DNA of 60,920 bases from a virus (IMGVR_UViG_2744054872_000005), one strand, 5' to 3'. Shown: positions 20,584-34,309, numbered from the stretch's first letter. Translations and numbers: made by a program. Notes: a model not told the origin generated them from the letters alone.

Positions 20584-21903
20584 TTACACTGGTGTGTTCA
20601 GCAAATCGTTAACGGCATCAGATGACGGGTTACCTGCAGCCAGCGGTGCCGGTGCCCCCTGCATCAGACGATCCAGCGCAGTGTCACTGCGCGCCTGTGC
20701 ACTCTGTGGTGCAGCTGCCAGAATGCGGCGGGCCGTTTCCACGGTCATACCGGGGGGTTCGGCCAGCACGCGTGCCTGTTCTTCGCGTCCGTGAGCCTCC
20801 TCACAGTTGAGGATCCCCATAATGCGGCTGTTTTCTGCCGCAACCGCTGCGGTGATCTGCGCGTTCACATCCGGCTGCGCCGCGCTGGCGTTTTTGCCCT
20901 CCGTCGCTTGCACCACGCCAGTAACGTCAGCCTGCGAAGCAGTGGCTGAAACAGTTGTTGATTGAGTCTCTTTGGTCATTCGCCCTCCTGAGAGACGGGA
21001 TTTACGTGTATCCAGTGCATCACGCATGACGGTGATCGCATCGGTACTGTTAACAAGTTCATCAGCCAGTCCGGCATCAATGGCCTCCTGACCGCTGTAC
21101 ACTGCAGCCTCGGTATCCAGCACAGCCTGCACGGACAGGCCGGTATATGCCGATACCTTCTGTGCAAACATCCGGCGAGTTGCATCCATCCGGGACTGCA
21201 GTGTTTCCCGGACATCATCCGGTAGATGGCTGTAGGGGTTGCCATCCACCTTATGGCTGCCGCTGTAAATCAGCGTGATTTCCACGCCCTGTTTCTCCAG
21301 CGCAGCGCCGTAATTACTGTGAGCCATCATGACGCCGATGGAGCCTGTCCGGGCGGTCTGCGTGACCAGACGCCGGGAGGCGGCACTGGCAAGCAGCTGA
21401 CCTGCACTGCAGTTCATGTCGTTGGCCAGCGCCCATACCGGTTTTATGTCACGCACACGGGCGATGATGTCAGCGCAGTCAAATGCCCCCGCCACCATCC
21501 CGCCGGGCGTGTCCATATCGAGCAGAATGCCGTCCACCATCGGATCGCTGGCAGCCTGTTGCAGACGGGCGATAATGCCGTTGTAACCGGTCATCCCCGA
21601 ATGCGGCTGCAGCGCCCGCGTCCGGTTGACCAGCGTGCCGGAAACCGGCAGCACGGCGATGCCGTTCATGACCTGATAACTGCGGGCCTGTCGTGGTCCG
21701 TCATCATCACCGGATAACGCCAGCGTCGCGGGTGTCTCCGGGGCAGTCAGGCTGTCACCGGACACCGCATCTGTCAGGCGGCTGATCCCAAGCTGGCCTG
21801 CTAGCGCACAAAAGAAAACCCGCGCATAGGCGGGTTCAAGCATCAGCGGCTCATTAAAGGCCATGCTGGCAATATGCGGGAGATTACGCAGCTCTGCTGT
21901 CAC
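20584..21903 (-). CDS. C: capsid assembly protease C (with nested scaffold Nu3)
   Basis: 439 codons from a GTG start (VTAELRNLPHIASMAFNE); 20-nt overlap with the end of B as in lambda. Confidence 0.9.
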   Translation of the reverse strand: MTAELRNLPHIASMAFNEPLMLEPAYARVFFCALAGQLGISRLTDAVSGDSLTAPETPATLALSGDDDGPRQARSYQVMNGIAVLPVSGTLVNRTRALQPHSGMTGYNGIIARLQQAASDPMVDGILLDMDTPGGMVAGAFDCADIIARVRDIKPVWALANDMNCSAGQLLASAASRRLVTQTARTGSIGVMMAHSNYGAALEKQGVEITLIYSGSHKVDGNPYSHLPDDVRETLQSRMDATRRMFAQKVSAYTGLSVQAVLDTEAAVYSGQEAIDAGLADELVNSTDAITVMRDALDTRKSRLSGGRMTKETQSTTVSATASQADVTGVVQATEGKNASAAQPDVNAQITAAVAAENSRIMGILNCEEAHGREEQARVLAEPPGMTVETARRILAAAPQSAQARSDTALDRLMQGAPAPLAAGNPSSDAVNDLLNTPV

Positions 21904-22663
21904 TCTTCTCCTCCTCTGTTGATTGTCGCAGCCCGGATTCAAATGCCGCAGCCGCCCAGGCTGGCGGTTTAAGACCGGCTGCGCGGCGCTCCATCGTTTC
22001 ACGGACCTGCTGGGCAAAAATTTCCTGATAGTCGTCGCCGCGTTTTGCGCACTCTTTCTCATAGGTGCTCAGTCCGGCTTCTATCAGCATCACCGCTTCC
22101 TGTACTTCTTTCAGACCATCGATGGCCATACGACCGGAGCCTATCCAGTCACAGTTCCCCCAGGCACTGCGGGCTTCCTGAAAACTGAAGCGTGCTTTTG
22201 AAGGTAACGTCACCACGCGGCGAGCGATGGCCTCTTCCAGCCAGCACAGAAACATCTGGCTCGCCTGACGGGATGCGACGAATTTTCGCCGCCCCATAAA
22301 GTACGCCCACGACTCGTTCGCACTGGCCCGTGCCGTGGAGTAGCTCATCTGGGCGTAATTCCGGGAAAGCTGCTCATACGAGACACCCAGCCCGGCAGCG
22401 ATATACCGCAACAGTGACTGCTCAAACACGGAGTAGCCGTTATCCGTGTCCTGAGCCGTCTGCAGGTTCAGTGAGTCCCCCGGCATCAGGTGCGGCACTT
22501 TTGCGCCTCCCAGACGGACCGGTGCTGCGGCGTAATACGCGGCAATTTCACCAATCCAGCCGGTCAGCTTGTCCCGCTGCTCCTTACTGTTCGCGCCCAG
22601 AATAAAATCCATCGCTGACTGCGTATCCAGCTCACTCTCAATGGTGGCGGCATACATCGCCTT
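21884..22663 (-). pseudogene. B: portal protein B, 3' fragment (about residues 292-533), separated from its 5' part by the island
   Basis: Encodes ...KAMYAATIESELD... through the lambda gpB C-terminus; upstream of codon K the sequence is unrelated island DNA. Confidence 0.9.
22656..22663. repeat. left copy of 8-bp direct repeat ATCGCCTT (island attL core or target duplication)
   Basis: Identical octamer at 33480-33487; removing the island and one copy rebuilds an uninterrupted gpB reading frame ...SAIVKAMYAAT.... Confidence 0.85.
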
Positions 22664-22736
22664 TATGAAAAGACAGGAAAAAATAAAATTTAAAAACAGT
22701 ACATTACGAATGCTCAGACCTATCGTTTAAAGGAGT

Positions 22737-22758
22737 CGCAATACACACTGCAATACAC
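22737..22758 (+). repeat. two direct copies of GCAATACAC (candidate integrase arm-type sites, attL side)
   Basis: tcGCAATACACacTGCAATACACg; same motif three times at 33298-33350. Confidence 0.6.
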
Positions 22759-23694
22759 GATTATTTATAAGATGAGCGGCATCCGTCATAAAGCTGGTGG
22801 ATGCTTTTTCTATGCATATATGCACAGTTTTAGTGGGCGTTAATGTCGATATAGGGATCCCCATATCGAGATTGGATACCTGGCTTTTTTCCGGTTAACC
22901 TTTAATCAGGCTGGTGGGCTTTACCTGTTTTGTATGAGTGGTCATCATGACCATGTCATAACAAAAACCCCATATTCGTGGTTTTTCTGTGTCGGGGCTA
23001 TTCTGCTGTTGCCGTGCTGGTGGATATTCTCCGGTATGCGACTCCCCATATCGGCATCAGGCCCACCAGCGTGAAGCGTTTTTCATTTTTCGCGGGTATA
23101 AAAAATCGATGGGGCTGGCAGTCCGGAAGACGTCAGGTCACAGGGATTTGACCCGCCCCTCCCTGTGCATGAGCACAATAAGTAACCGAAGGCGGAATTC
23201 CGCCCTCGGTACTCACATATGAGAAACGATATTTCTTCCACAGATACCCTTTATTTGGGTATCGCGAGTAAGCCCCAAAATCTGGGTGTTACTCTTACTA
23301 CCCAAACTACGGGTAGTTTCCGTAGTTTCATGGTCGAGTTGCAGATCTGCAACTCACCCACCCGCCAACCCATTTTTGGGCCGTCGGGAATATCAACAAG
23401 TTAGCACAGAAATAACTCAGGCAGATACAAAACTCAACTTTGAGCTTTGCTTATTATTCAGTTGGTTAACATCCCTCAAAACTGAGGACTGTACCCAAAG
23501 CTATTTTTATAGCTCCGGCCTCAGCCGTTGGCTGTTCCCGAAAATATCAGTCAGTTACGTTAACCGCTAATTTCTGCCTTTGGTGTGAATACTGTCGCTT
23601 TAACCTACGGTAATTGTTCTGCCTCGGTGCGTGTCACCGCCGTAACCGCGCCAGTAAACCCCACAGATTCGTGGTTTTCCTGAATATCAGGAAT

Positions 23695-23979
23695 CTACCG
23701 CCGCAACCGTTCCGGTTTCTTCCACTGGTAAGTATTTTTCGCGCTCTCCCTCCGTTGTTGAGAACGGCGACGGTATGCCAGCAACTCAAGGACTCTGATC
23801 CGTATGTCGCGCATATCCACGCCGTTAAGCTCGATACCGTCACGGCGCATCATCTCAGCCACCACACGCGCGTAATTTTCGGCTATCACGCTGTCCGGCT
23901 GCGTGGCCTCCTGTTTGCTTGATGGTTGTTTGATTCCGGTAACGCGGCGGATTAATCCCAGCAATTCAGATTCTGTCAT
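23695..23979 (-). CDS. hypothetical protein (94 aa), last gene of island, 11 nt downstream of the TerS-like gene
   Basis: Charged, helical-looking ORF tightly coupled to the TerS-like gene; no recognisable domain. Confidence 0.45.
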   Translation of the reverse strand: MTESELLGLIRRVTGIKQPSSKQEATQPDSVIAENYARVVAEMMRRDGIELNGVDMRDIRIRVLELLAYRRRSQQRRESAKNTYQWKKPERLRR

Positions 23980-33279: not shown

Positions 33280-33297
33280 TAAAAGCCCTCAAGAGAT

Positions 33298-33350
33298 TTG
33301 CAATACACACCCATCCCGATCGCCAATTTGCAATACACATTGCAATACAC
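33298..33350 (+). repeat. three direct copies of TGCAATACAC (candidate arm-type sites, int side)
   Basis: tTGCAATACACac ... tTGCAATACACat-TGCAATACACaa, between int and the junction. Confidence 0.6.
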
Positions 33351-33479
33351 AAAACCGCGAAAAACTGGAAGAGTGATGAACGGTCATCAAAAGTATGGAA
33401 AACGACATTCCAGACGCAGCAAGGGTTTCAGTGGAGTTGGCGAACGATGCGGGCAACTACGGTGAGATGATAGACATAA

Positions 33480-33487
33480 ATCGCCTT
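33480..33487. repeat. right copy of 8-bp direct repeat ATCGCCTT
   Basis: Identical to 22656-22663. Confidence 0.85.
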
Positions 33488-34309
33488 CACAATGGCGCTC
33501 TGCAGCTGCGTGTTCTGCAGCGTGTCGAGCATCTTCATCTGCTCCATCACGCTGTAAAACACATTTGCACCGCGGGTCTGCCCGTCCTCCACGGGTTCAA
33601 AAACGTGAATGAACGAGGCGCGCCCGCCGGGTAACTCACGGGGTATCCATGTCCATTTCTGCGGCATCCAGCCAGGATAGCCGTCCTCGCTGACGTAATA
33701 TCCCAGCGCCGCACCGCTGTCATTAATCTGCACACCGGCACGGCAGTTCCGGCTGTCGCCGGTATTGTTCGGGTTGCTGATGCGCTTCGGGCTGACCATC
33801 CGGAACTGTGTCCGGAACAGTCGCGAGGGACTGGTATCCCAGGTGGCCTGAACGAACAGTTCACCGTTAAAGGCGTGCATGGCCACACCTTCCCGAATCA
33901 TCATGGTAAACGTGCGTTTTCGCTCAACGTCAATGCAGCAACAGTCATCTTCGGCAAACTCTTTCCATGCCGCTTCAACCTCGCGGGAAAAGGCACGGGC
34001 TTCTTCCTCCCCGATGCCCAGATAGCGCCAGCTTGGGCGATGACTGAGCCGGAAAAAAGACCCGACGATATGATCCTGATGCAGCTGGATGGCGTTGGCG
34101 GCATAGCCGTTATTGCGTACCAGATCGTCTGCGCGGGCATTGCCACGGGTAAAGTTGGGCAGCAGGGCTGCATCCACACTTTCACTCGGTGGGTTCCACG
34201 CCCGCAACTGCCCAGCAAATCCGCTGCCACCGCCGTGATAACCGGCATATTCACGCAGCGATGTCATGCCGTCCGGCCCCAGAAGGGTGGGAATGGTGGA
34301 CGTTTTCAT
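33480..34309 (-). pseudogene. B: portal protein B, 5' fragment (about residues 1-276)
   Basis: Begins [31 protein letters not shown] as lambda gpB and runs to ...LQSAIVKA, then reads 17 unrelated codons into the island before a stop at 33428. Confidence 0.9.

Follow-up and report, generated by a model that had tools for sequence, protein, structure and literature searches.

A satellite island in the portal gene of a lambdoid Escherichia coli prophage and its assignment to the helper-embedded islands

We analyzed a stretch of 60,920 nucleotides (IMGVR_UViG_2744054872_000005; the window, in what follows, is this whole stretch) and identified it as an Escherichia coli prophage of lambdoid type, located at ydfJ/rspB (the Qin locus). 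The portal gene of this prophage, the cognate of lambda gene B, is split by an island of 10,816 bp, and the recombination that placed it there was conservative and site-specific, with a core of 8 bp. The sequence evidence assigns the island, with near certainty, to the helper-embedded phage-inducible chromosomal islands (HE-PICIs; PICI, phage-inducible chromosomal island) and to their site group B:Phage_portal_2:241. The overall explanation, in which an HE-PICI sits within the portal gene of this Qin-locus lambdoid prophage and its excision restores that gene, is considered highly probable. The narrower proposal, that this mechanism is operating in the particular strain from which the window derives, appears rather probable.

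The split portal gene and its core repeat

The original prediction placed the island between two portal fragments flanked by an 8-bp repeat (22656-22663 and 33480-33487, with 10,816 bp between them), and all of these coordinates were reproduced. The features at the two junctions are as follows.

33488-34309, minus strand: 5' fragment of the helper portal gene (cognate of lambda B), holding codons 1-274 up to the core (translation; annotated by RefSeq in GZEC065 and SCEC020022 as 'phage portal protein, missing C-terminus')
33480-33487, no strand: core or identity block, copy 1 (ATCGCCTT), attL in island orientation; 162/163 against the published B_Phage_portal_2_241 attL model
22664-33479, minus strand: satellite assigned to the HE-PICIs, 10,816 bp, its core genes all pointing the same way as the portal and the late operon; 99.9% identical to the catalogued Eco5118.11.B_Phage_portal_2_241
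22656-22663, no strand: core or identity block, copy 2, attR in island orientation; 151/154 against the published attR model
21884-22655, minus strand: helper portal gene, 3' fragment (translation; RefSeq 'phage portal protein, missing N-terminus')

The octamer ATCGCCTT, read on the gene strand as AAGGCGAT, sits inside portal codons K275-A276-M277. Six copies of it occur in the whole window, so the repeat by itself proves little; it matters because two of its copies are the exact portal break points. The 5' fragment reaches the core as ...LQSAIVKA, after which the frame runs 17 codons into the island and stops, and the 3' fragment (21884-22663 with the core included) begins with KAMYAATIES. 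The description of the insertion as in-frame, given in the original prediction, therefore adds nothing. Counted with one core copy, the insert measures 10,824 bp.

The removal of 22664-33487, which is the island plus one core copy, yielded an open portal frame of 1602 nt and 533 aa (Pfam Phage_portal_2; E 1.5e-96), in agreement with the uninterrupted frame that had been predicted. Over its full 1602 bp, this rebuilt gene matched, at 100.0% identity, the annotated intact portal genes of 19 or more complete E. coli genomes. Because of this identity, further lesions in the portal fragments were ruled out. The restored portal junction (attB) would read ...GCCATTGTGAAGGCGATGTATGCC... and the junction of the excised island (attP) ...TCTTTTCATAAAGGCGATTTATGTCTAT... 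It was also noted that the island carries neither a replacement portal sequence nor a satellite portal gene. An empty-site copy of the same prophage was encountered in strain AR_452, which is 99.99% identical over 41.6 kb (3 nt differ) with an intact portal, and its alignment to the window breaks exactly at 22663 and 33475-33487. Judged from this near-identical prophage, we regard the insertion as clean and recent.

We assessed how often the two junctions occur by a survey of 5,426 complete E. coli genomes. Of these, 64 held the integrase-side (attL) junction and 59 the far (attR) junction, and the target portal sequence was present in approximately 3,180 genomes at approximately 4,500 places. 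Three independent complete genomes possess the split portal with a 99.9%-identical island, namely GZEC065 (human blood), J-8 (chicken), and SCEC020022 (human). At the same portal codon, GPEC1031 and FDAARGOS_1287 carry a mosaic island (94.6% identity over 69% of its length, with other Bro-zone genes) in a different helper variant, and its integrase is a close relative of the window integrase under another protein accession. The same portal codon is thus hit by divergent islands in different helper variants, and for this reason we judge the portal targeting to be recurrent and site-specific, not accidental.

Islands between clpS and cspD in the chromosomes of many E. coli were 96-97% identical to the window island over nt 277-8483 and possessed a different integrase and alpA. 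The comparison points clearly to modular exchange, in which an integration module was swapped onto an otherwise common PICI body. An example of these chromosomal islands is that of strain 51489 (NZ_CM135151.1), and one copy had an IS1 insertion near cos.

Over the 22.8 kb of island plus flanks, the window differs from GZEC065 only by one substitution and by a 12-bp deletion in the D-like decoration gene, and it would therefore come from a fourth, very close strain. The 12 bp (GTTGCATCTTCT on the plus strand) are missing at approximately position 25350. The deletion is in-frame (109 aa versus 113 aa), and a gap of the same size was seen in the SCEC020022 alignment.

Assignment to the helper-embedded islands

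HE-PICIs were named and described by Tommasini, Mageeney & Williams in 2023 (NAR Genomics and Bioinformatics; PMC10111431), with 491 examples mapped to 14 sites in nine lambda-cognate prophage late genes. Gene B holds three mapped sites and one putative site (PMC10111431). The supposition that no described satellite targets the portal gene of its helper was thus contradicted by the literature. The identity block of site group B:Phage_portal_2:241 is aaggcgat, which occurs at least 82 times in the published catalogue table, and the group is monophyletic and multi-genus in the published integrase tree (PMC10111431). This block is the reverse complement of ATCGCCTT. The attL and attR matches listed above were obtained against the model Eco10269 (files 3 and 4 of the supplement), and the assignment to site 241 rests on these att-sequence matches to the published group, with the profile coordinate 241 taken from the paper.

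The catalogue includes the entry Eco5118.11.B_Phage_portal_2_241 (CP032892.1/2404963-2415798; helper Eco5118.60.proP; PMC10111431). This entry is the SCEC020022 element, with 99.9% DNA identity to the window island, and it shares the portal codon, identity block, attL and attR, doubled motif with its spacing, orientation, helper type, and locus. The class, the exact site, and a 99.9%-identical copy were therefore already catalogued in 2023, and the claim of novelty fails. What stood of the original prediction was its structural reading, a PICI inserted site-specifically in the portal of a helper with the expected gene set.

A further diagnostic of the class is a doubled motif near the ends of the island.

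33329-33351, minus strand: doubled motif tgTGTATTGCAatgTGTATTGCa, integrase side, starting 134.5 nt downstream of the core center in attP
22737-22759, minus strand: doubled motif cgTGTATTGCAgtgTGTATTGCg, far island end, ending 78.5 nt upstream of the core center

The TGCAATACAC repeats that had been reported near both ends were found at these two positions and as an additional single copy at 33299-33308, and they are the published diagnostic doubled motif tgTGTATTGCantgTGTATTGCa read on the other strand. In the published attP, two co-oriented copies of the doubled motif lie approximately 81 nt upstream of the center and 132 nt downstream of it (PMC10111431). The doubled TGTATTGC motif likewise occurs twice and co-oriented in the attP examined here, and its motif-to-motif span of 213 nt equals the published 81 + 132; the offset of 2.5 nt from the published spacing depends on how the core center is defined.

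The island integrase was 54% identical to the 11capE integrase over its full length (471 bits), and the AlpA proteins of the two islands were 67% identical. The 2023 paper used an integrase search cutoff of 400 bits (PMC10111431). With a score above this cutoff and with a 99.9%-identical element grouped there by the authors of that paper, the integrase is classed here as a member of the HE-PICI clade. Each of the sequence-level HE-PICI characters that could be examined here was present, including the disruption of a late gene, the orientation, the att block, the doubled motif, and the integrase. The island also has the Gram-negative PICI layout (10-20 kb, an int/alpA end, primase and origin, late genes, cos, and mostly one direction) at its size of 10.8 kb.

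We compared the island with several known systems. The founding HE-PICI, 11capE/50icd (E. coli NRG857c; site E:Phage_cap_E:80), belongs to the same class and has the same layout and doubled TGTATTGC motif, and its primase-origin-SSB-capsid-decoration block of 4.5 kb is 94% identical in DNA to that of the window island. However, 11capE targets the major capsid gene, has a 10-bp block, lacks terS, and possesses HEPN and DUF262 accessory genes where the window island has approximately 1 kb without genes. EcCICFT073, the model Gram-negative PICI, shares the int-alpA-primase/origin-capsid-decoration layout, the lambdoid helpers, and a lambda-type cos with helper cosQ/cosN and a private cosB. It is packaged as concatemers in full-size heads, with the specificity redirected to the island (Fillol-Salom 2018, 2019; PMC6092414, PMC6739421). 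In contrast to the window island, EcCICFT073 integrates in the chromosome away from its helper, and it uses Rpp (144-153 aa) as a partner of the helper TerS, whereas a full-length Nu1 homologue of 180 aa is encoded here.

Regulated gene integrity, or 'active lysogeny', is known from split genes such as sigK with the skin element in Bacillus subtilis and comK with phi10403S in Listeria. The likeness lies in a split gene with no replacement sequence that is restored only by precise excision; the difference is that here the split gene belongs to another mobile element, so that the switch would serve the satellite and not the cell. The 2023 paper itself drew this parallel (PMC10111431). An identity as a P4-like satellite was ruled out, as no Psu, Delta, or Sid families were found among the island open reading frames (ORFs), no Rfam C4/isrK immunity RNA, a kind reported from some Bro zones (PMC10111431), was matched in 22400-33700 at E <= 0.01, and the cos is lambda-type where a P4-like satellite would have a P2-type one. 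Capsid-forming PICIs (cf-PICIs) have a complete HK97-type module for heads and packaging, with portal, protease, large terminase, HNH, and head-tail connectors of their own, and rely on the helper for tails alone. The window island resembles them as a satellite with capsid genes. An identity as a cf-PICI was rejected, since Pfam and PHROGs found no portal, protease, or large terminase (TerL) among the 17 island ORFs scanned, with late genes limited to the E-like, D-like, and TerS genes.

Island genes, packaging sites, and the helper prophage

The island genes were grouped in the Integration / Bro / Replication / Late four-zone order of Gram-negative PICIs (Pfam and PHROGs). The int, alpA, primase, SSB, capsid, decoration, and TerS genes that had been named from the sequence were each supported by Pfam and PHROGs, and the iterons and cos by sequence.

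32038-33279, minus strand: tyrosine integrase, 413 aa, intact (Pfam Arm-DNA-bind_3 and Phage_integrase domains)
31779-32036, minus strand: AlpA, of the excisionase / transcriptional activator family (Pfam Phage_AlpA, E 5e-14)
31148-31724, minus strand: Bro-N gene, frameshifted into two overlapping ORFs (Pfam Bro-N match split over both; RefSeq note 'frameshifted')
29493-30814, no single strand: remainder of the Bro/dynamic zone (RefSeq annotation, Pfam, PHROGs), with the next four genes
30509-30814, plus strand: YlcI/YnfO
30112-30309, minus strand: Icd-like
29799-30119, minus strand: phrog_15327 protein, function unassigned
29493-29792, minus strand: DUF4222
27679-29511, minus strand: D5-type primase/helicase (D5_N, DUF5906, Pox_D5; Pfam, PHROGs)
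27440-27672, no strand: iteron field resembling an origin, with 10 or more GGTGAACAGT copies lying in both orientations, directly downstream of the primase gene
27146-27391, minus strand: small conserved protein phrog_1231 (PHROGs)
26727-27149, minus strand: SSB (Pfam, PHROGs)
25130-26509, minus strand: satellite late zone, with the next two genes
25469-26509, minus strand: E-like major capsid protein (Pfam Phage_cap_E), 41% identity to helper E
25130-25459, minus strand: D-like decoration protein (Pfam HDPD), 38% identity to helper D
24735-25118, minus strand: second AlpA-family helix-turn-helix protein, 127 aa (Pfam, PHROGs)
23991-24533, minus strand: Nu1-family small terminase (TerS), 180 aa (Pfam, PHROGs), 37% identity to helper Nu1

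The int gene abuts the portal 5' fragment, and int, alpA, and the primase gene are all on the minus strand like the portal. The iteron field lies at the position expected for a PICI origin. A gene for a 94-aa protein follows TerS in island order on the minus strand, and the last ~1 kb of the island (22664-23694) was without annotated genes. We call the small terminase TerS and not Rpp on the basis of its length (180 aa versus 144-153 aa) and its 37% end-to-end identity to the helper Nu1; a phmmer search of this protein against PDB sequences returned neither RppC nor lambda Nu1 at E <= 0.01. It was noted that the related GPEC1031 island possesses an intact Bro-N gene. YlcI/YnfO-family proteins are encoded by both the island (30509-30814, plus strand) and the helper (37343-37537, plus strand), each opposite to the strand of its neighbors. 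Consensus promoter-like sites were fewer than in shuffled sequence (7 observed versus 18.1 in shuffles).

We further characterized three sites associated with packaging.

24634-24710, minus strand: satellite lambda-type cos (cosN 24667-24678); cosQ/cosN side in common with the helper (95% over 77 bp), cosB side unrelated
37099-37175, minus strand: helper cos (cosN 37132-37143), upstream of Nu1 (36409-36954) and A (34509-36434)
23081-23164, minus strand: 84-bp block of the type that lies between HNH and TerS, in the cos region, in ST64B/e14-like phages of the HK97 type; possible second cos (sequence match)

The cohesive-end sequence GGGCGGCGACCT was found on the minus strand at 24667 in the island and at 37132 in the helper, and the island and helper cos sites diverged completely on the cosB side. 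The island combines a helper-type cosQ/cosN with a private cosB and its own TerS, and its cos follows the architecture that experiments established for EcCICFT073. Before excision, the composite holds the satellite and helper cos sites in the same orientation, at a distance of 12,465 bp. Along the packaging direction, the distance from the satellite cos to the helper cos is approximately 47 kb, or about one lambda genome, and that from helper cos to helper cos is approximately 60 kb, too great a length. On arithmetic alone, the geometry would allow the composite to be packaged as a chimera from one cos to the other, given a portal provided in trans.

The 84-bp block was 95% identical to part of the 125-bp gap between the HNH endonuclease and small terminase genes of Salmonella phage ST64B. 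HK97-type phages keep cos between these two genes. The block is co-oriented with the lambda-type cos of the island at a distance of approximately 1.5 kb, and it was found in 925 of the complete E. coli genomes, approximately 325 of them with PICI-type flanks (defined as at least 80% of a 106-nt query matched). The other 600 genomes mostly had a shorter match (~83 bp), and in the two loci inspected it lay between the HNH and P27-family TerS genes of e14/ST64B-like prophages. Both cos sites of EcCICFT073 are lambda-like (PMC6092414, PMC6739421), and we found no description in the literature of an HK97-type cos in such PICIs. It is a tentative suggestion, held at well below even chances, that the island and the related PICIs of these ~325 genomes carry two cos sites of unrelated type, with the candidate HK97-type site at 23081-23164, and this may serve as a lead, not as a finding. 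If both sites work, a satellite from a lambdoid portal would also be packageable by a second, unrelated helper family that is resident in many E. coli.

The helper prophage encodes int, xis, an exonuclease, repressor/cro/cII-like regulators, a replication initiator, a ren-like protein, Q, and lysis genes, along with the late genes Nu1, A, W, the split B, C, D, E, and a full tail set. It appears complete apart from the portal, with the predicted gene content of a working helper. The prophage spans approximately 58-60 kb with the island and 47-49 kb without it, close to the earlier estimates of 58 and 47 kb. Several other helper features were noted. Approximately 6 kb of non-phage cargo lies at ~45600-51850 between hokD and the replication genes (an MFS transporter, a gamma-glutamylcyclotransferase, a LysR regulator, a DUF2254 protein, and a BCCT transporter), and the AR_452 empty-site copy has the same block. 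The helper also possesses the moron iss (37900-38193), a bor-type serum-survival lipoprotein gene; two tRNA genes at 41619-41695 and 41801-41876, one Arg-TCT and one with a CAT anticodon (Met by ARAGORN, Ile by RefSeq); and two TolA-like genes at ~39600-41000 between Q and the lysis cassette.

Proposed excision and alternative explanations

In the mechanism that we propose, SOS induction would lead the whole ~60-kb composite to excise and replicate, and Q-antiterminated late transcription of the helper would pass along the portal 5' fragment and continue into int and alpA. Such read-through is plausible because no terminator-like site was found on the minus strand between 33480 and 33280, that is, from the portal 5' fragment to int. 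Int and AlpA would then cut the island out, leaving an intact helper portal gene and a 10.8-kb circle, which would replicate from its own primase and iteron origin. The Nu1-like TerS of the island would bind the private cosB and bring the helper large terminase to the common cosN, and concatemers (4 x 10.8 = 43.3 kb, which fits a lambda-size head) would be packaged with the restored helper portal, protease, and tails. Because the island points in the direction of the late operon and brings along no sequence to replace the portal, the portal could be made only after excision. Heads would thus be impossible for either partner until the satellite leaves, and the un-excised composite would be too long for a lambda-type head. 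We infer, with somewhat better than even confidence, that excision and portal restoration take place at this site.

Several observations weigh against this explanation, and most of them would fit a stranded element that was once integrated and is now immobile, inherited vertically in a dead composite, which we consider the main rival and an unlikely one. The Bro-N gene of the window island is frameshifted, the related FDAARGOS_1287 island has a split integrase, and the three 99.9%-identical islands share one prophage and one locus, as might result from clonal inheritance and not from ongoing mobility. The exact 30-nt attP junction had no match in IMG/VR, GTDB representative genomes, or JGI metagenome contigs, a weak negative given that matching was exact and that excised forms are rare in assemblies; the attL junction used as a control (24 nt) was found in 17 IMG/VR contigs. 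Among 50,697 deposited phage records, none covered the island, and only the cos block, the 84-bp block, and a distant primase match were encountered. Induction data exist only for the capsid-site HE-PICI 11capE (PMC10111431). No virions of 11capE or its helper were recovered, and many HE-PICI helpers look truncated (PMC10111431). The order of events was followed by quantitative PCR and deep sequencing for 11capE/50icd only (PMC10111431). Later literature held no experimental follow-up on HE-PICIs that we could find, otherwise only passing mentions and the 2022 preprint of the same work. Against stranding, the int, alpA, primase, ssb, capsid, decoration, and terS genes are intact here together with both att cores and both doubled motifs, the portal halves are undecayed, and the 3 nt that separate the helper from its empty-site copy argue for a recent insertion. 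Moreover, Bro-zone genes are highly variable among functional PICIs.

The remaining explanations were each found to be far less probable than stranding. An integrase that normally uses a chromosomal site, with the portal holding a look-alike, would be consistent with the 28 off-target insertions recorded for HE-PICI integrases (PMC10111431) and with the close relatives that carry a different integrase between clpS and cspD. However, this is practically refuted by the recurrence of the same junction in 59-64 complete genomes, where the islands diverge and the helper variants differ, the site group is published as monophyletic and multi-genus (PMC10111431), and the clpS/cspD islands have another integrase and match only over nt 277-8483. 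It is equally improbable that the two portal fragments are expressed separately and form a working portal without excision. The 3' ORF does start with an ATG at 22657, directly following the core, with AAGG just upstream; however, a spacing of only 2 nt separates this AAGG from the ATG, less than a normal ribosome-binding site would have, and the break cuts the Phage_portal_2 domain at its middle, around profile position 241 of 354. To our knowledge, there is no precedent for a portal that works from two fragments. A chimeric contig that joins a PICI to a prophage is the least probable of all and is already refuted, as the same junctions are found in independent complete genomes from different laboratories and hosts, the three 99.9%-identical ones among them, and in the 17 IMG/VR contigs, and the break is exact to the base with the core duplicated.

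As a discovery, the excisable satellite that we favor carries little weight, with its class, its site, and a near-identical element already in the literature. Its value lies in being a clean and well-preserved HE-PICI example, with core satellite genes intact, portal halves undamaged, a complete-looking helper, and a known near-isogenic prophage with an empty site. These characteristics would make it a good candidate system for studying excision of a portal-site HE-PICI, the dependence of head assembly on that excision, and the production of satellite particles.

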